NCBI GenBank assembly: GCA_963594125.1 | Contig: CAVBCV010000001.1 | Coordinates: 746 to 64,745, forward strand | DNA length: 64,000 bases | DNA from: Lachnospiraceae bacterium | GTDB taxonomy: Bacteria > Pseudomonadota > Alphaproteobacteria > RF32 > CAG-239 | Direction of reading: 5' to 3' | In this document: positions 1,873-19,672 of the stretch, piece after piece | Position numbering within the stretch: the first letter of the stretch is position 1 | Layout of the letters: every line of letters starts with the position of its first letter | The notes under the pieces: generated by a model | The model's input: the letters and a program-made list of their open reading frames with translations, nothing else | Told to the model about the DNA's origin: nothing | The model's database searches: none | Position numbers and translations under genes: made by a program

Positions 1873-3174
1873 ATGGAACCAACGGACGTAAAAAATAATC
1901 AAATTGATTTAGCAAAAAGTTCAACAAATAAGCTTTCTTTTAATGTTTGGGCCTTTCTGCTTTCGCCTCTTTATTATTTTTATAAAGGATTGGCCGGATA
2001 TTTTATTTTGTTTACATTTTTGCCAGTTATTCTCTTAATTCCTTTTTTATTTTTCCACGCTATTGAAGTTGCAGATACCAGAAAATTAATTATTGCAACA
2101 TGTTTCTTGGTTTCACACATTTTTGCCGGCTTTGTAGCAAATCCGGCTAATAAAAAATATCAAGAGAATTATATTAAAAAACATGGCGCCATAAATATAG
2201 ATAAAGAGGTTGAGTATTTTGCAATATCAGTACCGCGTTTGGTAATATGCACAATTTTAACCAGCGGATTATATACTGTTTATTGGGGTTTTAAAAACTG
2301 GAACAATTATCAAAAAACCACCAATGACGATGTAAATCCTTATCTGCGCGCTTGGTTTTTTGATTGGACAGCTGTCAGCTTGTTTTCAAATATAAAACGC
2401 ACCGTAAAAGATAATAAACCTTACGTATTTTATGGACTGATGTGTCTTTTGATATTTTTAGCTAATTTACTAACATCAGAAATTGTCTCTAAAAATTTAT
2501 TAAGTAATCAAAATGCCTTTATAATTTTGTTAGTTTCGCTTGTGCTTATGTTTATATATCCATTTTGTATTGTTCCGGTACAAAAGTCCATCAATAAATA
2601 TACAACCGAAATATTAAAAAAGCCGCTTGATAATCATTTTTACCCTTGGGAAAAAGTTATTATTACTTTGGGCATTGCCGTAAATATCATTAGCTTTTGT
2701 TCTGGTTTTATTGATGGAAGCAATGCGTTTATCAGCCAAGAAGAGGCCAGAAAAATTATGTCTTCCACAGCCTTTATATATAAACATACCAAAGCATATC
2801 CTGCGTTTTGTAAACAAGAAAATTATATTTTGCTGCAATATCCTAAAGACTTTAACTCTTTCTTTTCAGAAGAAATAAACAACTTTACTTCTTTTCTTAA
2901 CAGCAAAGGATATTCTTTAGAAATGGCAGAAAGCGAAATAATTACGCCTCAAATACAAAACGAGTTGAACAAATATGTATATGAGGATTTAGAGTCATTA
3001 AGAAAAATTTTAATTGCTGAAAAATACGATATACCTGAAGAAAATATAAAATCAGGAAGCGAATATGATTCAGCCCTTACATTAAGAGATACCTGCGAAT
3101 TTATAGATAAATATGGAGCAGATATTTTACAAAACACTCAAATAAGATACTTTTTTAAGAACAATACTTTATAA
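1873..3174 (+). CDS. Multi-pass membrane protein of 433 aa. The N-terminal region resembles DUF2628-type repeats (FNVWAFLLSPLYYFYKG and YTVYWGFKNW).
   Basis: Long ORF with the RBS aggaaa 7 nt upstream of the ATG and a TTGAAA-N16-TAGTAT promoter-like sequence at about 1805-1833. Several hydrophobic helices are visible. Confidence 0.55.
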   Translation: MEPTDVKNNQIDLAKSSTNKLSFNVWAFLLSPLYYFYKGLAGYFILFTFLPVILLIPFLFFHAIEVADTRKLIIATCFLVSHIFAGFVANPANKKYQENYIKKHGAINIDKEVEYFAISVPRLVICTILTSGLYTVYWGFKNWNNYQKTTNDDVNPYLRAWFFDWTAVSLFSNIKRTVKDNKPYVFYGLMCLLIFLANLLTSEIVSKNLLSNQNAFIILLVSLVLMFIYPFCIVPVQKSINKYTTEILKKPLDNHFYPWEKVIITLGIAVNIISFCSGFIDGSNAFISQEEARKIMSSTAFIYKHTKAYPAFCKQENYILLQYPKDFNSFFSEEINNFTSFLNSKGYSLEMAESEIITPQIQNELNKYVYEDLESLRKILIAEKYDIPEENIKSGSEYDSALTLRDTCEFIDKYGADILQNTQIRYFFKNNTL

Positions 3175-5517: not shown

Positions 5518-7611
5518 CTAATTTATCCGGTCTAACGCGCGGGCGATAACGTAATATATCTTGCCGACATCGGTGTTAGAAAGCATTGCCAGCAGCAACT
5601 CAGGCTTTTCAGCATTGCGCGCCGCCGTCATTAAAGATTCAAAATCACTGATGTAACTATCGGCAATTTTGCGAAAATCGGTGTTTTTTTCGTATTCATC
5701 GCGAATTTTAACAATCTGCTTGCGGCTTAAATTTTTAACCACATAACGGGCAAAAACGCCATGATCGCCGTCATAAAACTTTTTCCAGAGTTCGTCTTCA
5801 TCTTTGTTGAACAGCTTGTTAATATCTATGGAAATATTTTCCAAGTTCTGAATTAAACCGGAAGAACGTTCCAGAAAATTATCGGTGCTTAAATCTTCAT
5901 ATTTCTGTCTGATAGCGGAAAGTTCTTGCTCAGAGTGGGCGCGGCTTTCATTTAACAACTCAACCTGCTTGTTTACCAGACTGCCAAAATCGTCTATCTG
6001 ATTTTTATAAGCGGCAAAAACAGCGGCAGAATTTTCAGCCGTGGCATTTAAGGACTTGCTGATTTGCGCAATTCTGGTTTTAACCTCTTCAATGGTGTTC
6101 AAGGCCTGAGTGATGTGCGCGCTTTGGGTTTCAAGCGTTAAAGCTCCTTCCTTGCCCTTAGCCACAATCACATTAGCGCTTTCAGTCAGCTGCGCCGTGT
6201 TTTTATTAACCTCGCCGCTCACCGCGTTAAACTTATCTATTGCCTCAACCGAACGTAATTTAAGGTCATCAACGTTTTTACCTAAATCAGCGCTAATGCC
6301 GGCAATTTTATGGGTGATTTTTTCCGCAACCGCCTGAATTTCAGTATTTTTATTTTCGGTCTTTTTGATAAAATCATTAAGCTTAGCAAGCTCTGACTCA
6401 AGATTGGTCATAATCTTGGCAATGTTTTTAACCGCTTTATCTGATTTTTGCTCCAAGCTGTTGGTGGCGCCGTCTAAAATGCGGTCAACACCGGCGCGAG
6501 CCTCATTTAAGGCGGTAAGCTGCGCTTTAACGTTGTTTTCAAGGGTTGAGGAGCGGTTAATCATCGCCTCAACTTCCAAACTGATTAAGCGACCATATTC
6601 GCCAAGCCTGCTATCAAGATATGACGAGTTTTTATCAATCAATGCCGACTGTTCAGCCGCCAGCTCTTTATGGGTTTTAAGGCTGTTTTCAATGTGCGAA
6701 ATTCCGCTGTCCAAGCGTTTGTAAATTTCTTCACACCCGTCGGCGGTCTGCAAAAAGGCTTTTTCAAGATTTTTGCCATTGCTTTCAAAAACAGTCGCCA
6801 TATCCTCAATATGCTTACGACCGGCAGCGGCAAAATTTTCAAGTTCAGCATTCGCCTCTGAAATATAGTTTTTATCTTCTTGCAAGGTGTTTTTAAGATA
6901 TTCGGCGGTTGAAACCGTTTCATTAATCAAGGGATTTAGTTCATCAGTTAAGGCGGCGGCATTAGCCTTAAGCTGCTCAGAACTTGCCGCAAAGCGTTCG
7001 GATGACTGTTCGGCAACGGCAGCAACGTTTTGGCAGGCGGCAACCAGTCCGTTTGCGGTTGCGCTTAATTTATCAAGATTGTTACCGGCAAACGCGCTGA
7101 CAGCCTCATTGATTTTAGCAAATTCTTCCGCTTTAACGTAAAGCGCAGATTTTAGCTGCTTGGTTTGTTCCGACATTTCAGCCGCGGCGGCGGTTAATGA
7201 TTTAATTTGTTTTTGCATGGCTTGCGTAATAACATCTGCAAGCATATTGTTGTTTTGCGAGCTCAAAATCTTTTTAAGGCTCTGCTCAACCAGCGAGGCT
7301 TGACTTGCCGCCAACGATGAGCGCTGCAGCCAAACCACCAGCGATACCAAAACGCCCCATGATAAAAACGCGCCAGCCAAGAAGGTTACAAATTCTGTCG
7401 GCAGCAAGGCGGTGATTCCGCTCCAACCTAAAGCAAACTGAATGTATAAAAACAACAACCCAAACCAAACCGCGGTTACAATCAAGAGCGGCTTGCGGGA
7501 ATAATGGTGTTCAGTTTGTTCCGGCTTAGCAAAGGGAATCACGTTAGAAACAGTCGGTTCTTTTTGCAAAAACTCAGGTATATCTTTATTTTCAGTGGGC
7601 ACAATATTCAT
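5518..7611 (-). CDS. Membrane-anchored long coiled-coil protein of 697 aa. It has two N-terminal TM helices followed by an apolipoprotein-like alpha-helical repeat region. Function unknown.
   Basis: Hydrophobic segments LLIVTAVWFGLLFLYIQFALGW and FLAGAFLSWGVLVSLVVWL are followed by about 500 aa rich in A/E/K/L/Q/N heptad-like sequence. Confidence 0.55.
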   Translation of the reverse strand: MNIVPTENKDIPEFLQKEPTVSNVIPFAKPEQTEHHYSRKPLLIVTAVWFGLLFLYIQFALGWSGITALLPTEFVTFLAGAFLSWGVLVSLVVWLQRSSLAASQASLVEQSLKKILSSQNNNMLADVITQAMQKQIKSLTAAAAEMSEQTKQLKSALYVKAEEFAKINEAVSAFAGNNLDKLSATANGLVAACQNVAAVAEQSSERFAASSEQLKANAAALTDELNPLINETVSTAEYLKNTLQEDKNYISEANAELENFAAAGRKHIEDMATVFESNGKNLEKAFLQTADGCEEIYKRLDSGISHIENSLKTHKELAAEQSALIDKNSSYLDSRLGEYGRLISLEVEAMINRSSTLENNVKAQLTALNEARAGVDRILDGATNSLEQKSDKAVKNIAKIMTNLESELAKLNDFIKKTENKNTEIQAVAEKITHKIAGISADLGKNVDDLKLRSVEAIDKFNAVSGEVNKNTAQLTESANVIVAKGKEGALTLETQSAHITQALNTIEEVKTRIAQISKSLNATAENSAAVFAAYKNQIDDFGSLVNKQVELLNESRAHSEQELSAIRQKYEDLSTDNFLERSSGLIQNLENISIDINKLFNKDEDELWKKFYDGDHGVFARYVVKNLSRKQIVKIRDEYEKNTDFRKIADSYISDFESLMTAARNAEKPELLLAMLSNTDVGKIYYVIARALDRIN

Positions 7612-7799
7612 ATTTTCAGACCTTAAAATTAACTATTGGCGTTTACATTATATGCTGTTTTGTTTTAATTTAAACATCAAAATAACTATCCACAGCCTTT
7701 ATATAGCAGGAAAAATAAAAAAATGCAAAAAATACAAAAAAAGTGTTGATTTTTAAAAAATGATTAGGTATGTTACTTTTCGCATGATGAATTAAACAT

Positions 7800-7874
7800 G
7801 CCGCTGTAGCTCAGTGGTAGAGCACGTCATTGGTAATGACGGGGTCGCAAGTCCGATTCTTGCCAGCGGCACCA
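7800..7874 (+). tRNA. tRNA-Thr with anticodon GGU.
   Basis: The sequence folds by hand into a cloverleaf. The acceptor arm is gccgctg/cagcggc, the D arm gctc-agtggta-gagc, the anticodon arm cgtca-ttGGTaa-tgacg, and the T arm gcaag-tccgatt-cttgc, followed by the discriminator a and an encoded CCA. Confidence 0.9.
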
Positions 7875-8906
7875 TTTATCAGTTTCAGCCGTTTTGATGA
7901 GTTCGTCAAACGGCTTATTTATTGAAAAACATAGATTTTTTCCTTCAATTTTGCAGTCCGATAAAATCAATCTCAAAATCTCTTTTTTCGTGCCAAGAAT
8001 CGGACTTTCTAGAAAAACACCAATATTTGCCGCCACTTCCGCAATATTTGCCAATATTTCATCGGTTTCCGTATCAATCTCAAGATACTTGTCCATATCT
8101 TTTTGCAGCTTTTCTTTTTCAAGCTCAATTTCAGCTTTCAGTTCATTATACATCTTTTCATCACATTTGCCTTGAATATAGCCGCGGAATAAGGCTTTTG
8201 CTTGTTCATCAAGTTCATTTATCTTGATTGTGACATTTCGTTTCAGAGCCGTTGTGTTGTTATTTTCATCTTTGAGCTGTCTTTTAACTTCAGACTTGAT
8301 ATTTCTTAACATATCGTCGCTGATGTTGATAGGTAAACAAAGCTCTTTTTCAAGTTGGGCAAGAATTTTGGCTTCATTAACCGGTTTTTGACTACATTTT
8401 GAACGGAGTTTATTACATTTAAGATAATTATAAAAATGGTTTTCATCTTTTACCTTGGTTTCACAAGTCATTAAACTTCCGCAACAGCCGCATCTCACCA
8501 TTCCGCTAAATAAATATTGCTTATCACCATAATACAATTTGCTTGGCGCGCGTTTTCGCCCTTCCATGGTCTCTTGCACAATGCGGAACAGATTTTCATC
8601 AATCAAACGCGGATAGTTATGTTTATAGGTTTTGCCTTTATTGATAAAGTATCCTATATAAAACGGATTTTTTAAGATATTTTGCACTTGCGCTCGGCTG
8701 ATGGTCTTATTAACCGTGCACATTTTGGAAGACAAGCCCAAAGTCCTTGCTAAATTTGTAATATCCTGCAAAGTGCGTCCGCCTTTGGCATATTCTTCAA
8801 AAAGTCTTATAACCTTAGGCGCTCTATCCGGATCAATCACAATATCAGCCGGCGTTGTTTTGGTTTTGGGTATATTCAGATACCCAACAGGTGATGTTTC
8901 GTGCAA
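7827..8906 (-). pseudogene. Remnant of a large serine recombinase. The recombinase domain, the zinc beta-ribbon (CGCCGSLMTCE) and the coiled-coil are present, but the N-terminal resolvase catalytic domain is missing. The 3' end reads into tRNA-Thr.
   Basis: The ORF starts at PVGY of the recombinase domain with no YxRVSTxxQ catalytic region upstream; only about 130 bp separate it from the SMR promoter. The last 16 codons (WCRWQESDLRPRHYQ) are the reverse complement of the tRNA 3' half, which is the typical att arrangement. Confidence 0.7.
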
Positions 8907-8919
8907 ATTTTAAACATTG

Positions 8920-8947
8920 TTGACACAGGATAAATACTCGCTATAAT
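8920..8947 (+). promoter_or_regulatory. Near-consensus sigma70-like promoter (TTGACA-N16-TATAAT) upstream of the SMR gene, leaving a 5' UTR of about 120 nt.
   Basis: ttgaca at 8920-8925 and tataat at 8942-8947. Confidence 0.6.
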
Positions 8948-9073
8948 GGATATTATTTTGCCGCCGGGTAAAGAGTTTGACACTATGTTTTTCTGTCATT
9001 AGGCCTTAGAAGACAGAAAGATTATAGTGTTTTTTGTTTTTAAAACCATACAAATTGAAAGAGGATTAAAATT

Positions 9074-9391
9074 ATGGCATGGATACATTTGTTAATTGCT
9101 GCAATGTTTGAAGTTGGTTGGCCGGTCGGCTTGAAAATGGCAGAAAGCTCCCCGTTTAAGCTGATGTGGCTTGGTTTTGCGGCCATTGCTATGATTTTTA
9201 GCGGTTTATTTTTGTATATGGCGCAAAAAACTATTCCCATCGGCACGGCTTATGCTGTTTGGACCGGTATCGGTGCAACCTGCACTTTTGTTGTCGGAAT
9301 ACTTTTCTTCAATGATACAGTTTCTTTAATTCGTTGTTTAGGAATTATATTTATTATTTTTGGTGTCGCCTGCTTAAAATATGGGCACTAA
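9074..9391 (+). CDS. sugE: Small multidrug resistance (SMR) family transporter, SugE/Gdx-like, 105 aa.
   Basis: The start MAWIHLLIAAMFEVGWPVGLK contains the conserved Glu in TM1, and the protein has four TM helices at the usual SMR size. Confidence 0.8.
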   Translation: MAWIHLLIAAMFEVGWPVGLKMAESSPFKLMWLGFAAIAMIFSGLFLYMAQKTIPIGTAYAVWTGIGATCTFVVGILFFNDTVSLIRCLGIIFIIFGVACLKYGH

Positions 9392-10256
9392 TCATTTATG
9401 ATTAATTTTTAAAGTTGGTATAACTAAATAAATTTGCAGATTTTTTAATTATTTTTATATAGCAAAAAAACAAATCATAAGAAAGGATTATTATCGCTTT
9501 AGGCAGTCAAAGCTCATAGTTGTGATACATCATTATAGAATTGCTTTTTTGCGGTGAAGTTGCTCGGAAATTTTCTAAATAGTGTATTTTTATTTGCAAA
9601 TTGACTTAACCTCTTGTCCTTAAGGGCGAGAAGTTGTAAATAAAAAACATATACACCAAAGGCGAACACCTATTATCTTGATTAAGTGTCATTGATGTCA
9701 CTTAATTGAATAACCTTTAACATGCCGCTGTCAAAGGTTAGGAGAAACACCTACTGAATAAGCAAGAACCTCTTTAACTCCTCGCACGTAAAGGCCTTGC
9801 TGAAATTTGAGGCGTTTTTGATTGATTGGGGCTGGAATTGGCTAAAGTGGTTAGGTCGGCGGCAATGGACTTTATACCGACTGCCGCAGTGCCTGCCGAT
9901 ATAGGACAGCTCTCATGGATAACAGGTTGAAATTTTTACTTTCGTAAAGAAAAGTGTATACTGATTCCGCTAATCAGTTGATTGCTCTGCACCTTTTGAT
10001 TTTATTCTTTTCTGCATAGACTCTGGCGTATATTTACTCAGTGCCCATAAACCAATCCAGAACATTTATGCGCTCAATACCTTTATTCTCTCCACGTCCA
10101 TAATCCAAAGTAAACTTATTTGTTAATTGTATTTAACAAAATTGAAGTTTTGCCATTTTTGTAAAATGAAGTTCAATGTATCAAATCCTATTTCAAACTA
10201 TCCTCAAACAACTTAATTTTCTGCTTAATCGCTTAAAGTATTATAATCTTGCAGGG

Positions 10257-10871
10257 TTACAATAGTTTGTGAATATCATATTCATCATAGCCTTCGTAAT
10301 AATAGCTTACATCAATGCCTTTCATAAAAACTTCGCGTTCATCAATTTTATCAGTTAGAGCATTTTTTAAAAGATGCTTTATTTCAATATCTTTAACAGG
10401 GCTTCTTTCCATTGCTGACAGATAATCATCTTTATCAATTTTATTCCAATCAACAACCCGCTGCAGCTCTTTTTTGAATATTAAATCCAGCCAAATTCTG
10501 GTAGCGCGTCCGTTTCCTTCTCGGAAAGGATGAGCGATATTCATTTCAACATATTTTTCAACAATTTCATCAAAAGTTGATTGCGGCATTTTATCAATAT
10601 GCTTTAAGGATTGCGCCAAAAACATTACCGGAGCAAATCTGAAACTGCCTTTGGATATGTTGACATCGCGCATTTTTCCGGCAAAATCATAAATATCTTC
10701 AAACAAATACTTATGAATCTGTTTTAATCCGGCAAAAGTGCCTACTTTTATTTGATTGATTTTACCACTGTCATAAAGTTTTATCGCTTTTCCTTTGCTT
10801 AGTTTTTCCTCAATCTTATTGAGCTCAATTTGACTAGTGATATTAAATTTGTTTTTTAAGACCATTTTCAA
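10257..10871 (-). CDS. fic: Fic/Doc family protein, a putative AMPylator toxin-like protein, 204 aa.
   Basis: Canonical FIC motif [12 protein letters not shown], with an upstream [21 protein letters not shown] region similar to FicT/VbhT-type Fic proteins. Confidence 0.85.
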
Positions 10872-10891
10872 TCCTTTTATCCGGTATTCTA

Positions 10892-10913
10892 AGCCTCCTT
10901 CACGGAGGCTTTT
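10892..10913. other. GC hairpin (gcctcc-ttcac-ggaggc) immediately downstream of the 547-aa ORF stop codon and 40 nt upstream of the Fic start codon. It is flanked by T5 on the + strand, so it may be an intercistronic processing or attenuation element.
   Basis: Inverted repeat seen directly in the sequence. Confidence 0.4.
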
Positions 10914-10918
10914 TAGGC

Positions 10919-12562
10919 TTATCTGCCATTCTGGCGGCGGAGGAGCATTAATTCCATACTGTTTTTGTTATCTCTCATTTGGCTAAACGATGGAGAAATT
11001 CTCGCTATCGTGTCCTGCTGTGGTCGTCCGGACAAAGATCTCAGATATGCGGCTTTGTCCATGTTGGTCTTTTCAGCGGCAGCATTTTGAGTTGCGGGCG
11101 CCGGAGTTTCAGCAACTGAATCGTTCTGAGCAGGCGACGGAGCGGCGGTTTCTGTGTTCGTGTTTTTAGAAGATGTTGACTGAGAACGCTGAGCCCCCGG
11201 TATACCGGTAATTACCGGCTTGTCTAAATCAAGAATTTCTTCATATTGAATTTCTGAAACACGTTCATTTTTTGACCATTTCGGGTAATTGTTCAAATAA
11301 TCTTTCGGCTCTTTTGGTTCGGGAGTTTTTTCCTTTTGGTTTTTTAACAAGTTAGCCATTTTATCCACACACCTTTTAGACAAACTTTTTTCTTCAAATT
11401 CCTTAACTTCTTCCGTCTTTTCAATAGGCATTTTTTCTTGCGGGTTAATCTTTAACAAAGAGTAATAATCAACCCCATTAATATTGTAAATTTGTTTTAA
11501 AGCTGCTTGATAATTTTTTTCATTTTCATTTGGTAGTAATACTCGCTCACCAGGATTTCCTAGAGCTTTATTGAGTTGTAAATTTATAGGCTTTTCTACT
11601 CGCCAATCTCGTTCTGATAGTTTGTCTTTTTGAAGCTCCATTACCTCTTTCAAATCATTAAAATATCTTTTTCGTTGTCCATCGTCCAAATCTTCTATTT
11701 TTTTTGCCTTATAATAACTAAGCGCAAAATCTGCCTGTTTTTTCATTCCATCGGCAATGTATAAGTGTTGCAATAAATTATTATATTGCTCAAAACTCAT
11801 GTTATCTTTAAATGGAAAAGCCTCTAGTTTTTCCATATGTTTAACAATAATGTCTACGTCATTTATTCTCCAATCATCCGGTACTTTCACATCTTCTTTC
11901 ATATATTGTTTAAAATTGACACCGCCGATTGTATAGGCAATGTTTAATTGTTTTTGATATTCCGCCTCATTATCCTTAAAATTTCCTTTACCATATCTCA
12001 AATAATTCTCTGTCATGTCAATATGATTCTTGAAATACCTATCGGCCCATCTATCCATCCACATTTTTTGTGTGCCGTTCATAATCAAGGACATATCTTT
12101 TTCAAAATCTTTGGGGTCAGAACTTAAGGGATTGACCTCGCCTTGTTGCACCGCCTCTTTATAAAAAGAAAACCCATGTGATCTATCAAAAACATTGACA
12201 TCGCCTGTTTTAATATATTCTTCTCTTAAATAAACCAGTTCTGCCATCTTGGCGGAGATTTCATCAGCCATACATAATTTATAATATTGTTCCGAGGAAA
12301 CACTAATGTTTTTAGACTTAAATCCTTTATTAGCATTACTACGATGCTTTTGTTCATGATAGAGGATGCAATCATGGCTATTTTTTTCAAAAAGCCACAT
12401 AAATACATCATCATCATGATAATTCATTGTTATTGTATTTGTAATAGGCGAAAAAAAACCTCCGCTATGATTTCCATACCCTGCAATCGTATCAACTTGA
12501 TAGTCAATTTTTTTCGTCCGAAAGTCGTTCGTTTGCTTTTTAAGGTCATCTGCCAAAGACAT
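10919..12562 (-). CDS. Hypothetical soluble protein of 547 aa with a single HExxH (HEQKH) motif and a low-complexity C-terminal tail rich in S/T/P/A/Q and ending in basic residues. It could be a zincin-like effector.
   Basis: Long ORF whose RBS aggagaag lies in the 22-bp gap after the upstream TerB-like gene. The sequence is YHEQKH at about residue 70, no TM segments, and a C-terminus of ...LLRRQNGR. Confidence 0.55.
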
Positions 12563-12584
12563 CTTGCTTCTCCTCTATCAAAAA

Positions 12585-13010
12585 CTATGCGCTTTCCATC
12601 ACTACCGCCGATTTTACCAACCAGGCTTTTCTTTCAAGCACCAATTCATTGATTTGCAAAACTTTTTCAGGTTCAATATTTAATTTTGCGGCAACTTTTT
12701 CAATAAAATTGACTTCTGCATCGCCTAATTCATCATCAACATGCGCCATTGTTAACAACTCACGTATCAGCGCAAGAGCTTTATGGCGGACTTTAATGAT
12801 ATTTGCAATTTCAGGAAGTAAAATATCTTCACCCATGGGAGCATTAATTTCCGCAACTTTGTTTTTGATGTTATAAATATTGACAATTTCATGGATGCAT
12901 TCGCGCTCGCGGTCATCAACACGTCCATCTGATTTTATTAAAAAAATCAGCGCGCGGACAAATGTTACTTTTTCAGACTCGCTTAATTGTTGTATATAAT
13001 CGTCTGCCAT
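12585..13010 (-). CDS. TerB-like (tellurite-resistance TerB family) domain protein, 141 aa.
   Basis: The segment KVTFVRALIFLIKSDGRVDDRERECIHEI and the overall helical composition resemble TerB or the DjlA N-terminal fold. It is the first gene of a three-gene minus-strand operon. Confidence 0.45.
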   Translation of the reverse strand: MADDYIQQLSESEKVTFVRALIFLIKSDGRVDDRERECIHEIVNIYNIKNKVAEINAPMGEDILLPEIANIIKVRHKALALIRELLTMAHVDDELGDAEVNFIEKVAAKLNIEPEKVLQINELVLERKAWLVKSAVVMESA

Positions 13011-13342
13011 TGCTATGCTCCTTTCTGATTAATATATCATAAAATTAGCATTAGTTATGTTAATATAATATTAAATTTTTATACAGCCACGCTTAGCTAT
13101 AAGCTCAATTTTCTGATTCAACAGCTTAAAATCATTAAAATTAGTCCGATAATTGCACAATAAAAGCGCACCATAAAAAGTTAAATTTACCCGCCTATCT
13201 TTAACTTTCTCAAAAAGAAAGTTAAAGATAAACCTATTACATTGAAAATTTTATTTATTGTGGTATAATGGTATTATCGTTTTAATAAGGCGGGTAATAT
13301 GGTTAAAGATAATTTTTTTATTATATAAAACAGGAAGCGAAA

Positions 13343-13948
13343 ATGTTTACAAAAGAAGAAATTCAAGAAGAACTTGATAAACAAAACTGGGAAAAACCTG
13401 AGCTGTTCTGGCAAAACCGCAAGTCTTCTGACGGCAAATATCTGTTATTCAGAGGACATGATGTTATTGATGATGCCTCCACCCAGCGCTACCAAAATGG
13501 AAACGGCAACGAGATTTCACTCATTCATGCTTCTCCCATATTTAAGGCGGTTGTTTCTCCGTGGAAATTTAAGGCAAGTAAGAATTATCAAAATTTTCCG
13601 GCTAATTTAGCTTTTGTTTCTGTTTATACCGGCGGCGCTAATAATAAATTTTATCCTGATGAAACACTGGAGTTTGTTTTAGCAGGCAAAGAAAAAGATA
13701 ACGGGGAAAGAATTGACAACATTACCAACTTTGATGAAAATAAACATTTTGAAACCGCCCTCACAAAAGAAAATAAAAAAATTGCAACATATCTGTACAA
13801 ATTTACTCAGGGCATGAACAAAGACAGCGTTATGATTGCCAAACTTGAAGATGGCTCCAAGCTCATGCGAATGCTGAAAGAAAACCAGAAACAAAAAAGC
13901 AATGCCATGTTTATGTCTATGATTCAAAACAACCAAAAAACATTATGA
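13343..13948 (+). CDS. Hypothetical protein of 201 aa, the first gene of a two-gene operon with the Rcl/metallophosphoesterase fusion.
   Basis: RBS aggaag upstream of the ATG, and a promoter-like TTGAAA-N16-TGgTATAAT at about 13242-13275. I found no recognisable motif; FRGHD and SLIHAS are too weak to call an ADP-ribosyltransferase. Confidence 0.5.
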   Translation: MFTKEEIQEELDKQNWEKPELFWQNRKSSDGKYLLFRGHDVIDDASTQRYQNGNGNEISLIHASPIFKAVVSPWKFKASKNYQNFPANLAFVSVYTGGANNKFYPDETLEFVLAGKEKDNGERIDNITNFDENKHFETALTKENKKIATYLYKFTQGMNKDSVMIAKLEDGSKLMRMLKENQKQKSNAMFMSMIQNNQKTL

Positions 13949-14004
13949 AAATCAATAATTTTGCATTAAAATTTGCTGACAGATAAAACATTATAGGAGT
14001 GTCT

Positions 14005-14979
14005 ATGATTACTTCGCCTCAAAATCTAAAAATAAAGAAAAAATCAATATATGTATTTTGCGCGGGACCGATTCAGGGCGCGCCTAATTGGCAAGTCGCA
14101 ATGCCAAACTGGCCTGATGTTACTTTTATCAATCCACGCCGCGAAAAAATCAGCGCTGATTTTGACTGGAACGAACAGGTTAAATGGGAAACAACAGGCT
14201 TACGCCTCAGTGATTTTATATTGTTTTGGATTCCGGCGGAAATTACTTCTATCGCCGGACGAGATTATGCGCAAACAACCAAAATTGAACTTATGGAAAA
14301 CTTGGTCAGAGGCAAAAACATTGTGCTTGGCATTGATCCTAAAGTACATACGCGGCATTATTTGACTTATAAATATCAGCAATATACCGGCGGACAACCG
14401 GTTTTTGATAATCTGCCGGATTGTTTGTCCGAGTTAAAAAAGCGCATTGATGCTAAAAACAAACGGCATAAAATATTTTTTACCTCAGACACGCATTTTT
14501 CATCTGAACGAGCATTTAGCCTTAGCCGTCGTCCTTTCTTTAGCGTTGAAGAAATGGACTGGTCTATGGTTGAACGATGGAATACCGCTGTTGGAATTAA
14601 TGACGATGTATACCATTTGGGCGATTTCGGTAATATTGAATTTGCGCAGTATTTAAATGGTAAAATTCATTTATTGTTAGGTAACTATGAACGCGATAAA
14701 AAATCATTAATCCCTGAAAATGTTGCGGAAATTATCAGCGATGATATTTATAAACTTAATTATCAAGACTATGAATTTTTATTAGCTCATGAGCCGGTAA
14801 AATTAAGAGAAAAAACCGAGTTTGGCTTATTCGGGCATATTCACAGCCGTCAGCCGGTTAAAAAATACGGATTAGATGTAGGGGTTGACGCTCATTATTT
14901 TACGCCCATTGATATGGAAACGGTTTTGTGGTACAAAAACGCTATTGAAAACTTTTACGACGACAATGTTTTTACATAG
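14005..14979 (+). CDS. Fusion protein of about 324 aa. The N-terminal domain resembles nucleoside 2-deoxyribosyltransferase / Rcl (DNPH1), a dNMP N-glycosidase fold. The C-terminal domain is a calcineurin-like metallophosphoesterase.
   Basis: The N-terminus IYVFCAGPIQGA parallels the Rcl motif VYFCGSIRGG. The C-terminal half carries the metallophosphoesterase motifs DTHFS, HLGDFGN, LLGNYERD and GHIH. I prefer the ATG at 14005 with RBS taggagtg over the GTG at 13999 given by the ORF track. Confidence 0.6.
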   Translation: MITSPQNLKIKKKSIYVFCAGPIQGAPNWQVAMPNWPDVTFINPRREKISADFDWNEQVKWETTGLRLSDFILFWIPAEITSIAGRDYAQTTKIELMENLVRGKNIVLGIDPKVHTRHYLTYKYQQYTGGQPVFDNLPDCLSELKKRIDAKNKRHKIFFTSDTHFSSERAFSLSRRPFFSVEEMDWSMVERWNTAVGINDDVYHLGDFGNIEFAQYLNGKIHLLLGNYERDKKSLIPENVAEIISDDIYKLNYQDYEFLLAHEPVKLREKTEFGLFGHIHSRQPVKKYGLDVGVDAHYFTPIDMETVLWYKNAIENFYDDNVFT

Positions 14980-15340
14980 TGCCACCGGATTGAACAATCT
15001 CATAATCGGCAATTTTGCCCGATTTATCAAAGCCGATGAACAAATTTGTTTCCTCAAAAGTGTAACTATCTTGAAACCACGACATAACCCAACCGATAAG
15101 CGGAATCATCCAATGGTACCTGCCCGCGCCGGATATTTTGCGATATTCATAATATTCTAAGTTGTTTTTCTGAAACACAAGGTTAGGCGTTCCAAATTTT
15201 TCTCTTACTTCAGATTTAGAAGAAACTTCCGTCATTTGGCTTTCAATTCTGACGCGGTTGTCTGCCAATTTGGTATTGCCGATAGTGGTGCTGCAAGAAC
15301 ACAGAATAATCATGGCGGCTATTAATAAAACTTTTTTCAT
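14972..15340 (-). CDS. Predicted lipoprotein of about 122 aa. Function unknown.
   Basis: Signal peptide with lipobox MKKVLLIAAMIILCSCS. The internal ATG at 15340 is preferred over the ORF-track start at 15406. Confidence 0.5.
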   Translation of the reverse strand: MKKVLLIAAMIILCSCSTTIGNTKLADNRVRIESQMTEVSSKSEVREKFGTPNLVFQKNNLEYYEYRKISGAGRYHWMIPLIGWVMSWFQDSYTFEETNLFIGFDKSGKIADYEIVQSGGTM

Positions 15341-15351
15341 ACTAACTGCTC

Positions 15352-15981
15352 CTATTGAACTTTGGCTAATCTGACAACAAAATCTTGCCCAAATTGTTTG
15401 TACCAATCATTTCTCTGATTGCCGGAAATTTCCGCCGATTTATCAATTATGCTGAAAGAATTGGCCTTAACATGCCCGTCTGCCGTTACTTCATTATCGG
15501 TTTTATTGAGCGCAAAGTGCCCGATATAAGTAATTTCTTGCGGACGTACCGTAAAGCGGATTTTGCTGTCGCCCTCATAATGCTCATCGGTTTCTACCAC
15601 GGTACGGGTCACTTGCGTGTTGCCATAGTATTCGGTTGTTGTATAAATGTATTGCAAATAAAGATTGGTTACCTCGTATGTGCCTATCGGCAACATAGCC
15701 GTATCATATTTATTGCCGCCTAAAATGGTGCTCATATAAAAAACTTCATTAGTTTTAACGTTTTTGAAAGCGATAATATCATTATAATTTACACCAAAAA
15801 AGCCATCGTCAGAAACGTTATCAGATAATGAGGTAATAACCACGCCGCGAGCGCCGCTGTTAAACAAAGCCGGACGAAATTGGCGGCTGGCGCGCAACAA
15901 ATCACTCTCATTCGGGGTTTGCGGAAAAGCGCACCCGACAACAGTCAAACAAACAATTAGCATTAAAAACAATTTACGCAT
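15352..15981 (-). CDS. Predicted lipoprotein of 209 aa. Function unknown.
   Basis: Signal peptide MRKLFLMLIVCLTVVGCAF with a lipobox Cys. Confidence 0.5.
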   Translation of the reverse strand: MRKLFLMLIVCLTVVGCAFPQTPNESDLLRASRQFRPALFNSGARGVVITSLSDNVSDDGFFGVNYNDIIAFKNVKTNEVFYMSTILGGNKYDTAMLPIGTYEVTNLYLQYIYTTTEYYGNTQVTRTVVETDEHYEGDSKIRFTVRPQEITYIGHFALNKTDNEVTADGHVKANSFSIIDKSAEISGNQRNDWYKQFGQDFVVRLAKVQ

Positions 15982-16135
15982 TGCCCACTCCTGATAAATA
16001 TCGGCATTTAAATTATTATCAAAACTCTTTATTTTAGCATATACTATAAAAACAAAATGTTATTTTCAACTACAATTTAGTATTTACCACAAATATAAAA
16101 TATATTTTTCTTGCCATATTAAGCATTTAAAAAGT

Positions 16136-17905
16136 TTATTTATTTTGTATTTGCCAGAGGTGTTGAAATTCGCCGGAAGAGGCAAGTAAATCTTTAATAG
16201 CGCCTTGCTCTGCTATTTTACCTTTATCCAAAACAATAATGCGATCCATTTCTTTCAAGGTGGAAAGTCGGTGAGCAATAGCAATGACTGTTTTATTTTT
16301 CATTAAGTTTTTCATACCTTTTTGAATATATTTTTCAGCTTGACTATCTAAAGCTGAGGTTGCCTCGTCTAAAATTAATATCGGCGAATTTTTTAAAATC
16401 GCGCGCGCAATAGCCACACGCTGCCGCTGCCCGCCGGAAAGTTTAACGCCCTTTTCTCCGACTTTGGTTTGGTATCCTTTAGGTAATTGTTTAATAAAAT
16501 CATCGGCATAGGATTTTTGCGCCGCCTTTTCAATATCAGATTGTTTGGCTTGCAATCGTCCATACGCTATATTTTGGCTCACACTGCGATGAAACAGTGA
16601 TGTATCTTGCGGAATAACGGCAATTGCCTCATGCAGGCTGTTTTGTTTGATTTTGGCTATATCTTGTCCGTCTATTAAAATTTGACCGGACTGAATATCA
16701 TACGCGCGTTGCAACAGATTAATGAGCGTGCTTTTACCACTGCCGGAAACACCGACAATCCCGACCTTTTCACCGGCATTTATGGTAAATGACAATTTGT
16801 TAAACACTTTCTTTTTTCCATAGCTGAACTTAACATTTTTAAATTCTATTTTGCCACCCTTTATTTTAAGTTTTTTGGCGTTTTTAACATCAACAACTTC
16901 ATGCTTTAGCACAAATGGCGACATAGCCGCTTGCAGAGCGCCATAGTTGGTATTTAATTCACAGATATTAACTAAAATGCCTGAAAAAGTATTCATAATT
17001 GCATCCATCAGCATTAACACTAATGTTACATCGCCAACGCTGATTTGATTTTGATACCACATCTTGATTAGCAGCAATATACTTCCAGACTCAAATAAAC
17101 ATAGCATAGCTCGTTGAATACGCAGCCCGTTATGAAACGTATTTGTAGCGGACAAACGCGCGTTTGTGCATTTATCAAATATTCTTTTTACAAAGGAAAT
17201 TTCATAATCTTCACTACCGCCTGCTTTTATGTTCAAAGAATTACTTATACTATCGGCCACCACGCCGTTAAAATCATCAAGCATATCATTAGCGTTTTTA
17301 TGTAAAGCGCGCAGTTTAAAGCTGATTTTATAAGAGGCAACAGCGGATATTGAGCCAAAAACAAAAACTAAAAGCAAAAACCACAGGCTGACCCGTCCGA
17401 TAAAATAAAAATTAAGCAAAACAAAGAAAAAGGCGCTGTAAAACCGCGAAATATTTCTATGCAATTCCGTAGTTTTGTTTGAGCAGTTAAGTGTTTTTTG
17501 TGAAAGTTGTCCGGATTTTTGCGATGAAAAATAATTTTCAGAGTGTTTGGCTAAATAATCTACCGCAAACAACTTTATTTTAGCATCCATAAAATTCCGC
17601 ACATTGTTTTCTTCAATCAGCTCGCGCACCATTCTGAAAACAGACTGCCCGACATACGCAAAAAATATCGCTATTAAAAACCACCCTGTTTTACGCCAAG
17701 AAAGCTCCTGCGGCGTAATTAAAGCAAAATACTCTATCATCTTTGAGAAAAATACCGGAACATAAACTTTAGAAATCTGCAAAGCAAACGCTAATACCAC
17801 ACCGGCAACCGCCCATTTGCGGGCACCGTATAACGCCTCCCACATAAACAACAGCGGATTTTTTGATATTTTGCGCATATTCGGGATTTTTTCAAAAGAC
17901 TTCAT
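16136..17905 (-). CDS. ABC exporter with fused permease and ATPase, MsbA/ABCB-type half transporter, 589 aa.
   Basis: Six-helix N-terminal transmembrane domain, then a nucleotide-binding domain with Walker A GVSGSGKST, the signature LSGGQRQRVAIARA and Walker B ILILDEATSALD. Confidence 0.85.
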   Translation of the reverse strand: MKSFEKIPNMRKISKNPLLFMWEALYGARKWAVAGVVLAFALQISKVYVPVFFSKMIEYFALITPQELSWRKTGWFLIAIFFAYVGQSVFRMVRELIEENNVRNFMDAKIKLFAVDYLAKHSENYFSSQKSGQLSQKTLNCSNKTTELHRNISRFYSAFFFVLLNFYFIGRVSLWFLLLVFVFGSISAVASYKISFKLRALHKNANDMLDDFNGVVADSISNSLNIKAGGSEDYEISFVKRIFDKCTNARLSATNTFHNGLRIQRAMLCLFESGSILLLIKMWYQNQISVGDVTLVLMLMDAIMNTFSGILVNICELNTNYGALQAAMSPFVLKHEVVDVKNAKKLKIKGGKIEFKNVKFSYGKKKVFNKLSFTINAGEKVGIVGVSGSGKSTLINLLQRAYDIQSGQILIDGQDIAKIKQNSLHEAIAVIPQDTSLFHRSVSQNIAYGRLQAKQSDIEKAAQKSYADDFIKQLPKGYQTKVGEKGVKLSGGQRQRVAIARAILKNSPILILDEATSALDSQAEKYIQKGMKNLMKNKTVIAIAHRLSTLKEMDRIIVLDKGKIAEQGAIKDLLASSGEFQHLWQIQNK

Positions 17906-17908
17906 AAC

Positions 17909-19672
17909 TTACCCCTCTTTTTCCAGCTGTTGCATTTTCCATAACTTAGCAAATTTACCGTTTTTCATGGCGGCAAGTTCATCAAAAGTACCGGTTTCCA
18001 TGATTTTTCCTTGTTCAATATAAATAATCCGGTCCATTTTCTTTAAAGTTGAAAGCCGGTGAGCAATAGCCATTACGGTTTGTACGCCTAACAGATTATT
18101 AATTGCCGCGGCAACCTCGCTTTCAGATTGGCTGTCAAGCGAGGAAGTCGCCTCGTCTAAAATTAAGATGGGACTATTACGCAAAACCGCGCGAGCAATG
18201 GCAATACGTTGTCTTTCACCCCCTGAAAGTTTGCAACCGCGTTCCCCGACCATTGAGTTATAGCCTTCCGGCAATTTTTTAATAAACTCATCAGCGCAAG
18301 CAGTCTGCGCGGCTTGTTTTATTTTTCGGTCAGTCGCTTTAATGCCATAAGCAATATTTTCTTTTATACTGCGCTGAAACAAAACCGTCTCTTGCGGAAT
18401 AATGGCTAAATTTCGGTGCAAACTGCTTTGCGTTACGTTTTTAATATCCTGCCCGTCTATTAAAATTTGACCGGACTGAATATCATACGCGCGTTGCAAC
18501 AAGTTAATGAGCGTGCTTTTACCGCTGCCGGAAACCCCGACAATCCCAACCTTTTCACCGCTCTTGATTTTCAGATTAAAGCCGTCAAAAATTCTGTTTT
18601 GTTCCGGATAGGCAAAACAAATGTTTTTAAATTCTATTTCAGCTTTTTTAACTTTAAGCGGTTTGGCGTTCGGGTTATCGGTAATTTCATGCGGGGTTGT
18701 AAACGGCTCTAATCCGGCTTGAACATAAGACAAACTGTTGGCGAGCCTGCGAAAATCTATACACAGTTCCATCAGCCACATAAAACCGCCGCTCAATGTT
18801 AATAAAACAAACACAATATCGCCGACCGTAATTAATGATTCACTCCATAAATAAATGGCATAAATCAACATAAACAGAGAGCACAAATATATAAAACAAC
18901 ACATGCCGGTAAAAGATGAAAACCATGCCAACATGGTCTTGGCTTTAATTTTTATGTATTGTTGCAGTAATGTTGATAAACGCTTTTTTTCATGCTCTAA
19001 ACGATTAAATTGCTTAACCAAGCGGATATTGGCAATAACATCAACCAGCCAACCGGTATATAAAGCCTCTGATTTGCTCTGCATTTTATTTAAGTGGTTA
19101 CTGGTTTGATTGGCGTAATAATTAACTAAAGTTACTACGGCAACGCATATTACAAACAATAATCCTAAGCGAGGATTGATGATTGTTAATAAAATTATTT
19201 TTACGCCGATATCGCAAAAAATTCCCCAAAACTGCGCAATAATTACGGAAAATATCGGCTGAAGAGAATTAATCTGATTGGTTTTAGTCAGTAAAGTTCC
19301 GGTTTGTTTGTTGACAATATAATTAACCGAATGCCCGAAAATATATGAAAGAGCGCGACCGTAAATACGCCTTTGCAGCGGAAAATAAAAATGTTTTTGC
19401 CGATATATATTATTTTGTTTAGGCAAAAAGATGTTAATAACATTGCAAATAAAAATGGCGGCGAAAATCCATAAAAGATTATGCAAATTTTCAGGCGTTG
19501 CCCCTTGTTTAACCCCCTCAACCATTTTGGCAAACAACCAATCTAATAAGTTGAAGACGGAAATTTCCGCAAGCACAAACAGCAAACAAATTAAAAATGT
19601 CCATTTATAAGGTATCAGACATTCATTTATGATATATTTTATTGCCGTTTTCGGAAATGGCTGCGCCTGCAT
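17909..19672 (-). CDS. ABC exporter with fused permease and ATPase, paralogous to the adjacent gene, 587 aa. The two probably form a heterodimeric exporter.
   Basis: Same architecture, with Walker A GVSGSGKST, signature LSGGERQRIAIARA and Walker B ILILDEATSSLD. It is adjacent and co-directional with the paralog. Confidence 0.85.
   Translation of the reverse strand: MQAQPFPKTAIKYIINECLIPYKWTFLICLLFVLAEISVFNLLDWLFAKMVEGVKQGATPENLHNLLWIFAAIFICNVINIFLPKQNNIYRQKHFYFPLQRRIYGRALSYIFGHSVNYIVNKQTGTLLTKTNQINSLQPIFSVIIAQFWGIFCDIGVKIILLTIINPRLGLLFVICVAVVTLVNYYANQTSNHLNKMQSKSEALYTGWLVDVIANIRLVKQFNRLEHEKKRLSTLLQQYIKIKAKTMLAWFSSFTGMCCFIYLCSLFMLIYAIYLWSESLITVGDIVFVLLTLSGGFMWLMELCIDFRRLANSLSYVQAGLEPFTTPHEITDNPNAKPLKVKKAEIEFKNICFAYPEQNRIFDGFNLKIKSGEKVGIVGVSGSGKSTLINLLQRAYDIQSGQILIDGQDIKNVTQSSLHRNLAIIPQETVLFQRSIKENIAYGIKATDRKIKQAAQTACADEFIKKLPEGYNSMVGERGCKLSGGERQRIAIARAVLRNSPILILDEATSSLDSQSESEVAAAINNLLGVQTVMAIAHRLSTLKKMDRIIYIEQGKIMETGTFDELAAMKNGKFAKLWKMQQLEKEG

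Follow-up and report, generated by a model that had tools for sequence, protein, structure and literature searches.

The window analysed here comprises 64,000 nucleotides of contig CAVBCV010000001.1 (assembly GCA_963594125.1, deposited as Lachnospiraceae bacterium and placed by GTDB in the alphaproteobacterial lineage CAG-239). It contains, at 13999..14979 on the + strand, a gene whose deduced product joins an N-terminal domain resembling nucleoside 2-deoxyribosyltransferases (NDTs) and DNPH1 to a C-terminal metallophosphoesterase (MPE) domain. Because of its analogy with the phage proteins DutZ and DmtZ, we propose, with somewhat less than even confidence, that this fusion is a phage-type bifunctional nucleotide-degrading enzyme, in which an MPE step would precede an NDT-like step, encoded by a stand-alone gene within a variable island. 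An original prediction made from the sequence had described the fusion gene as the second member of an operon, preceded by a gene for a 201-aa protein (13343..13948, + strand). Both open reading frames (ORFs) are present, and the fusion itself was confirmed by profile (PF15891 and phrog_547) and by structure (Foldseek matches to 4mcj and 1xm7).

The N-terminal, Rossmann-like domain occupies approximately residues 17-150 (14047..14448, + strand; residues are numbered on the 326-aa ORF). Residues 19-110 matched Pfam PF15891 (Nuc_deoxyri_tr2) with an E value of 9.4e-9 and 36 bits, against a 30-bit gathering cut-off, and no match to PF05014 was found for the fusion protein at E <= 1. A profile of the N-domain family retrieved 4mcj as the sole PDB match (E 3.8e-6); Foldseek comparison with the PDB likewise returned 4mcj (BDI_0649; E 2e-6, template modelling (TM) score 0.74) and, more weakly, the NDTs 6qai and 2a0k from Leishmania and Trypanosoma (E about 0.1, probability 0.95). 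Profile and structure searches thus both matched the domain to an NDT-type fold. The closest solved structure, 4mcj, is a protein of Parabacteroides distasonis named 'putative nucleoside deoxyribosyltransferase', which also belongs to PF15891 and shares the motifs FLAG..G..W, PRR and QVxWE. It is, however, a stand-alone structural-genomics protein of 154 aa, the profile alignment covers the first half of the N-domain, and we found no reported function for it.

Several N-domain residues were invariant (G23, G27, W31, Q60, W63, E64, W77, P79, Y90, Q92, T93, E97 and E100). For comparison by hhalign we used the sequence of rat Rcl/DNPH1 that is identical to PDB 2khz. The glycine-rich β1 loop, IYVFCAGPIQGA, aligned with VYFCGSIRGG of Rcl, as predicted, but the correspondence was weak (E 0.033) and not the close match that had been claimed. 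In the same alignment, E97 fell opposite the Rcl nucleophile E93, within the context IELxE..GK.I as compared with YELGR..GKPI, the flanking pattern ..ELG..GK.I being common to both. A catalytic Glu nucleophile characterizes the NDT/DNPH1 superfamily (E93 in Rcl, E98 in NDT and E103 in DmtZ). The position of the catalytic Asp/Asn (Rcl D69, DmtZ N77) fell into an alignment gap, in the helix before β3, for which the invariant Q60 or E64 are candidates; Y18 of the window protein was not conserved among the family. In sum, as judged from the alignments, the fold and the key Glu appear to fit an N-glycosidase, and the canonical Tyr-Glu-Asp/Asn triad looks incomplete. The domain therefore resembles DNPH1/Rcl and the NDTs in its Rossmann-like fold, its glycine-rich loop after β1 and its invariant Glu at the nucleophile position, but differs from them in lacking a conserved catalytic Tyr, in the greater length of the loop that precedes the Glu (GRxYAQTT) and in being fused to an MPE, which DNPH1 and the NDTs are not.

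The C-terminal small MPE domain (approximately residues 157-326; 14467..14976, + strand) was clearest in the PHROGs database, where residues 151-323 matched phrog_547, 'phosphoesterase', with an E value of 2.8e-35; the match to Pfam Metallophos_2 was sub-threshold (22.4 vs 27 bits). The Aquifex protein aq_1665 (PDB 1xm7) was retrieved both by sequence (E 3.6e-4) and by Foldseek (E 2e-8, TM score 0.69), with further structural matches to MJ0936 (1s3l), YfcE (1su1), Vps29, the Ap4A hydrolase SapH (3qfm) and LpxH. The nearest solved folds with a known function are thus small phosphodiesterases and nucleotide pyrophosphatases, not protein phosphatases, and the domain is predicted to adopt the calcineurin-like MPE β-sandwich. 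Its motifs (D164-x-H166, G208-D209, G228-N229-Y-E, H264 and G279-H280-x-H282) were invariant in 50 homologs, as were all of the metal ligands (D164/H166, D209, N229, H264 and H280/H282). The motifs DxH, GNYE and GHxH were therefore correctly predicted; the reported 'GDxxxN' is in fact GDFGN (motif II, GDxxN), and its Asn was not conserved in these homologs. An AlphaFold2 model of the whole protein, computed from an alignment of 50 sequences, reached a mean predicted local distance difference test score (pLDDT) of 94.6 and a predicted TM score (pTM) of 0.91, the latter indicating, at the level of the model, a single compact two-domain body. The same MPE motifs occur in aq_1665 and in phrog_547 proteins of Enterococcus Schiekvirus, Staphylococcus Kayvirus and rV5-like phages, up to 50% identical to the C-domain. 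Those proteins lack the N-domain and occur in some phages as two tandem copies, and we found no reported function for aq_1665 or the phage phosphoesterases.

The fusion had been considered an unusual architecture, but a protein database search with it returned 944 matches. Among the 120 matches listed, nearly all covered at least 93% of the query and carried PF15891, with 41-57% identity outside the window's clade, indicating that the PF15891-MPE fusion is a large family and not a rare one. The contigs bearing it are mostly of 200-410 kb and phage-like, with many small unannotated genes on the same strand, RtcB, an intein-bearing NrdD, RNA ligase, a sigma factor, homing-endonuclease domains and a multisubunit RNA polymerase; by this gene content they look like jumbo phages. 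IMG/VR contained at least 564 related stretches, and the loci fetched included 72 with the fused gene, representing 26 lineages at 85% identity. The huge phage LR756500 from GenBank (462 kb) carries a full-length copy with 32% identity. The MPE domain alone is very frequent in large phages: it was found in 1210 GenBank records, all annotated simply as 'phosphoesterase', which include those of Enterococcus Schiekvirus (50% identity), Herelleviridae of Staphylococcus and Listeria, rV5-like coliphages, PaP1-like Pseudomonas phages, Vibrio phages and Lak phages, and the domain also occurs on rhizobial megaplasmids with about 30% identity. The main jumbo-phage lineages (L018-L058) contain an extra stand-alone MPE paralog at about 2430-3110, some 2 kb 5' of the fused gene, and the Enterococcus phages L065, L067 and L099 contain two tandem MPE paralogs.

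Close relatives of the window fusion were found at two loci, L001 (95% amino acid identity), from a human-gut metagenome-assembled genome labelled 'uncultured Alphaproteobacteria', and L002 (83%). The contig search for relatives used a single protein as query, whose reach is close relatives, and returned one locus; the 90%-identity cluster of the window fusion comprises 28 member sequences, one of them present on 43 contigs. The ratio of non-synonymous to synonymous substitution rates (dN/dS) was 0.07-0.10 in comparisons with L001 and L002, indicating that the fusion gene is under purifying selection. In a neighbour-joining tree without bootstrap support, the bacterial clade of the window fusion nested among sequences from phage contigs. 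The simplest reading of this tree is acquisition from the phage pool, and a gut alphaproteobacterial lineage probably took the fusion from jumbo phages. Nothing that we found pointed to nucleotide salvage in a reduced symbiont, which had been raised as a possible function. Although widespread, the family is not a housekeeping enzyme of conserved synteny, there being no conserved neighbour in the 26 lineages when the four genes on either side were clustered.

The strongest contextual signal came from the domains themselves. In three diverged contigs (L080, L102 and L103), separate adjacent genes encode the PF15891 domain and the MPE, with N-domain proteins 52-62% identical, and elsewhere the two are fused; therefore, this pattern of fusion and fission argues that both activities work together. 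Other neighbours were scattered. A Pfam scan of 118 neighbour proteins identified radical SAM/NrdG-like proteins (4), endonuclease V (2) and IMPDH-like, PhoH, PnuC, NadR-like, PARP, PRTase, TelA, TerD and RlaP families, and the neighbours on phage-like contigs include genes for ribonucleotide reductase, radical-SAM, IMPDH-like and PRTase proteins. Targeted tblastn searches (RtcB, RNA ligase, NadR, PnuC, NrdD, NADAR, TelA and others) detected each in at most two lineages, and a look-up added a third lineage for NADAR, so that near the fusion we counted NADAR in three fused lineages, RtcB and NrdD in two each and RNA ligase in one. Around the stand-alone MPE, the rV5-like Escherichia phage Antha (L098, 408-10669) has a block with DNA ligase, MazG, NAMPT and PRPP synthetase, an RNA-repair/NAD-reconstitution neighbourhood in which the next genes after the MPE encode an Rnl1-type RNA ligase and a small ATPase; in Enterococcus phage EfsSzw-1, thymidylate synthase and NrdG are close to an MPE, after which comes a second MPE paralog. 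Gene context thus appears to point loosely to nucleotide, NAD and RNA-end metabolism, without discriminating among them. In L004 (1-4790 and 12397-12882), the nearest phage-like relative, the fusion stands beside a GATase/amidoligase pair, TelA and NADAR; this neighbourhood, the TerB of the window and a TerD at another locus hint at a loose link to Ter-type modules.

In the two-step proposal, the C-terminal dinuclear MPE would first hydrolyse a nucleotide at a phosphoanhydride or phosphodiester bond to yield a 5'-monophosphate, candidate substrates being a (d)NTP or (d)NDP, a cyclic nucleotide, or a dinucleotide such as NAD+ or Ap4A. The rigidly packed N-domain would then use E97 to cleave the N-glycosidic bond, releasing the free base and (deoxy)ribose 5-phosphate, or would alternatively transfer the sugar phosphate to another base. 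The net effect would be the irreversible removal, or base exchange, of one nucleotide class, which in phages would amount to editing of the nucleotide pool; the substrate, the order of the reactions and the biological role are all inferred. Both chemistries have precedents, with a calcineurin-like domain converting dNDP to dNMP and NAD+ to NMN and AMP (bioRxiv 10.64898/2026.01.15.699771), and NDT-like effectors depleting adenine nucleotides in retron Ec86.

The closest parallel is found in Z-genome phages, where the NDT-family enzyme DmtZ releases adenine from dAMP and transfers deoxyribose-5-phosphate to 2-aminoadenine, and where DutZ, a dATP/dGTP hydrolase, is encoded next to DmtZ in some phages and fused to it in others (PMC12884076). 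As in that pair, an NDT/DNPH1-fold domain and a phosphohydrolase-type partner acting, by analogy, on nucleotides are phage-encoded, either by adjacent genes or as one polypeptide, and the logic that we propose would be the same, from polyphosphate to monophosphate to base removal or exchange. Conversely, DutZ has a dUTPase fold where the window protein has an MPE; the DmtZ triad is Tyr-Glu-Asn, with the Tyr replaced by Phe in the fusion; and the N-domain belongs to PF15891, with 4mcj and not DNPH1 as its best PDB match. With another phosphohydrolase fold and an incomplete triad, the fusion is not a member of the DutZ-DmtZ module, and the relationship is one of analogy. No PurZ-type (adenylosuccinate-synthetase-like) family was among the 25 of 42 families listed for the 118 neighbour proteins, and no targeted search for PurZ or DpoZ was made.

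Several observations weigh against the bifunctional enzyme. The β1 catalytic Tyr (Rcl Y13, DmtZ Y6) aligned with a nearly invariant Phe, F20, so the chemistry may differ or the N-domain may merely bind a ligand, and the alignment that links the N-domain to Rcl is itself weak (the E value given above). In the MPE, motif III is GNYE, with a Tyr replacing the His of GNH[DE]. The MPE was found without the N-domain at 21 phage loci and must therefore be able to serve some role independently of it. Because no neighbour is conserved, context does not fix a substrate, and we found no tested activity in the literature for the fusion family, PF15891 or 4mcj; a literature search for PF15891 or Nuc_deoxyri_tr2 found no paper.

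This well-conserved and confidently modelled fusion, for which we found no functional study, is present in hundreds of giant-phage genomes and in at least one lineage of gut bacteria. If the two-step model were true, the fusion would represent a second, independently evolved phosphohydrolase and N-glycosidase module beside DutZ-DmtZ, and would provide a first function for PF15891 and for the very common phage family phrog_547. In jumbo phages, it could also be a pointer to unknown modifications of DNA or to counter-defence chemistry. A more specific version, which we regard as quite improbable, is that a widespread but unrecognised jumbo-phage enzyme with a Tyr-less variant of NDT chemistry selectively destroys or base-exchanges a single nucleotide species along the route from polyphosphate to monophosphate to base, serving either a new pathway to non-canonical DNA, by phosphodeoxyribosyl transfer as in DmtZ, or the removal of modified dNMPs or of signalling nucleotides that set off host defences. 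For the window itself the implications are modest, namely a phage-derived accessory gene in a variable island.

Alternatively, the fusion might act in counter-defence, destroying an immune nucleotide signal or a molecule derived from NAD+ or ADP-ribose (a cyclic ADP-ribose isomer, a cyclic oligonucleotide or ADP-ribose-phosphate), in which the MPE would break a phosphodiester or pyrophosphate linkage and the base would be taken off by the NDT-like domain. We consider this unlikely. NADAR is found a few genes at most from the fusion in L004, L081 and L101, a PARP-domain gene is near it in one lineage, and NadR and PnuC in another, but each such neighbour turns up sporadically, in 1-3 of about 28 lineages, and these genomes cluster auxiliary genes anyway. 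Likewise, the bacterial copy stands amid Fic, TerB and restriction genes, although an anti-defence enzyme under purifying selection in a bacterial chromosome would be harder to explain. Iyer et al. have proposed that phage fusions of SLOG, Macro and NADAR domains split ADP-ribose derivatives at more than one bond (PMC9503650); nevertheless, the surveys of jumbo phages and of viral NAD/ADP-ribose systems by the Aravind group report ARC-type DrHyd domains alone in viruses and do not describe the PF15891-MPE architecture. A conflict-type setting, as originally envisaged, is plausible in view of the jumbo-phage-like contigs, the island with Fic and TerB, and the type IIG restriction enzyme in relatives. 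Bacterial defence effectors with an MPE or NDT-like domain act on nucleotide pools in the conflict between phage and host; however, they have sensor partners, whereas the fusion has no conserved partner and is mainly found on the phage side. The fusion protein matched no family of PADLOC-DB 2.0 at E <= 1, a library that may predate Calcineurin-CE.

The replacement of the canonical catalytic Tyr by Phe also suits a different role for the N-domain, as a nucleotide sensor without catalytic activity, which would regulate the phosphoesterase in the manner of SLOG and PUA domains elsewhere. [quoted passage not shown] Nonetheless, E64, E97, Q60, Y90, Q92, T93 and E100 are invariant across sequences that are 43-57% identical to the window protein, and E97 occupies the NDT nucleophile position, a pattern more typical of an active site, making a pure sensor a poor bet in our view.

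Less likely again is a role in RNA repair, in which the MPE would heal broken tRNA or RNA ends as a 2',3'-cyclic phosphodiesterase or 3'-phosphatase and the N-domain would bind or trim a nucleotide. The phosphatase of Clostridium thermocellum Pnkp is an MPE, which counts in favour of this role, as does the position of the stand-alone MPE of Antha directly 5' of an Rnl1-type RNA ligase and a small ATPase; near the fusion itself, RtcB occurs in two lineages and RNA ligase and RlaP in one each. Such neighbours, however, are found in a minority of the fused lineages, no MPE of the lambda-phosphatase or Pnkp type was among the top 50 Foldseek matches, and RNA repair would leave the invariant acidic pocket of the N-domain without a role. 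Calcineurin-like phosphoesterases are listed by Iyer et al. as occasional members of rV5-type RNA-repair neighbourhoods (PMC9503650).

A dedicated bacterial conflict system formed by the 201-aa protein and the fusion is highly improbable and, given the lack of co-occurrence, largely refuted: the two genes lie on the same strand 50 bp apart, behind one strong promoter-like site and with no terminator-like site between them, and both are under purifying selection, but neither product matches PADLOC and the pairing was seen in the window alone. The fusion gene was present at none of the seven loci carrying homologs of the 201-aa protein, some of which are on short contigs, and no such homolog was present at any of the 74 other fused loci examined, indicating that the two genes form no conserved unit. 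The operon proposed originally thus fails as a conserved unit; co-transcription of the two genes in the window is plausible, but as a product of local history and not of a conserved system.

Comparison of the three related loci supports this view of the gene order. In the window, Fic, HExxH and TerB genes are divergent from the 201-aa gene and the fusion. In L001, the order is an HD gene, a gene for a 507-aa S41-peptidase-like protein and the fusion, convergent with HExxH and TerB genes, and in L002 a type IIG restriction enzyme and a Fic gene are divergent from the fusion, with no gene between. The 507-aa gene of L001 (3497-5020) occupies the slot of the 201-aa gene behind the promoter-like segment, window positions 13241-13315 being 88% identical to L001, where this different gene follows; the slot behaves as a swap site for unrelated cargo genes. 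On the 3' side, the fusion is followed in all three loci by the same two small convergent genes, which therefore form with it the stable part of the locus, both flanks being insertion hot spots. In the window these genes overlap each other (144 aa and 209 aa; 14972..15981, - strand) and are retained in related genomes, and neither product matched a Pfam family. The 144-aa gene extends over the 3' end of the fusion gene as well, and both proteins have N-termini that are hydrophobic and lipoprotein-like.

The TerB/HExxH pair lies 5' of the fusion in the window and 3' of it in L001 (6161-8107) and is absent from L002, suggesting that the TerB/HExxH(/Fic) operon behaves as a movable cassette without a fixed association with the fusion. 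This divergent operon of the window (10257..13010, - strand), characterized by Pfam, NCBIfam and PADLOC matches, comprises a TerB-domain gene (12585-13010, - strand) with a weak match to PADLOC BnzA (E 2.3e-5), a gene operonic with it for a 547-aa HExxH protein (10919-12562, - strand) with no family match and a low-complexity C-terminus, and an NmFic-type Fic gene (10257-10871, - strand) matching the Neisseria-type equivalog NCBIfam NF046029 (E 8e-95) and the PADLOC candidate PDC-S04 (E 1.6e-105). A Neisseria-type NmFic is unexpected in an alphaproteobacterium-like genome and suggests horizontal transfer.

As predicted, the 201-aa protein belongs to no recognisable family, with no Pfam, NCBIfam or PADLOC match at E <= 1. 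In PHROGs it matched weakly two families of unknown function, phrog_21488 (E 0.0018) and phrog_29724 (E 0.12). A word-indexed search found 22 homologs, and an exhaustive hidden Markov model (HMM) search of 1.84 billion proteins found 20 cluster representatives, ten of which were scanned and contained no Pfam domain. The family profile found nothing in the PDB, and the predicted structure (pLDDT 81.5) had no significant Foldseek match in the PDB or BFVD. A candidate assignment as an R-S-E ADP-ribosyltransferase (R37/S93/E110) was dropped: the pertussis toxin S1 and PARP folds had the top TM scores of the non-significant matches, but these were about 0.3, with E > 1. The ORF, although an orphan, is a real gene under purifying selection (dN/dS 0.13), yet its partnership with the fusion is not conserved.

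The fusion gene is listed as a 326-aa ORF starting at a GTG, which is overlapped by a Shine-Dalgarno-like AGGAG read from the sequence (13995..13999, + strand). This overlap and the length of the orthologs, 324 aa with the N-terminus MITSP, make the ATG at 14005, which would give 324 aa, the probable true start. A sigma-70-like promoter lies 5' of the 201-aa gene (13242..13269, + strand; TTGAAA, 16 nt, TATAAT, with an extended -10 TG); as predicted, TTGAAA-16-TG-n-TATAAT scored as the top promoter-like site of the region, with 11/12 matches. The scan showed no terminator-like site between the two genes, and its sole terminator-like match, within the fusion ORF, is probably due to chance. Twelve nt 5' of the -35 hexamer, within the intergenic region that separates the divergent genes and outside the segment common to the window and L001, there is a perfect inverted repeat of 15 bp with a 5-nt gap (13196..13230; arms TATCTTTAACTTTCT and AGAAAGTTAAAGATA), which could be an operator.

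The locus had been placed in a tRNA island, but the window contains a single tRNA, tRNA-Thr (7800-7874, + strand), and an Rfam scan of 7000-16500 found this tRNA only. A truncated large-serine-recombinase ORF of 359 aa (7827-8906, - strand) overlaps the tRNA with its own 3' end, and together they appear to delimit, on the left, a variable island of low GC, the GC content being 0.358 for 7875-16100 as compared with 0.404 in the rest of the window. The predicted operon, tRNA island and symbiont salvage were ordinary or unsupported features, and it is mainly for phage nucleotide metabolism that the fusion family offers a lead open to testing. The 359-aa ORF retains Recombinase and Zn-ribbon domains without the N-terminal resolvase catalytic domain, and looks like a decayed large serine recombinase. 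Downstream, at 16136-19672, the window contains two tandem ABC exporter paralogs (589 and 587 aa) with approximately 68-70% nucleotide identity over segments of roughly 560-680 bp.

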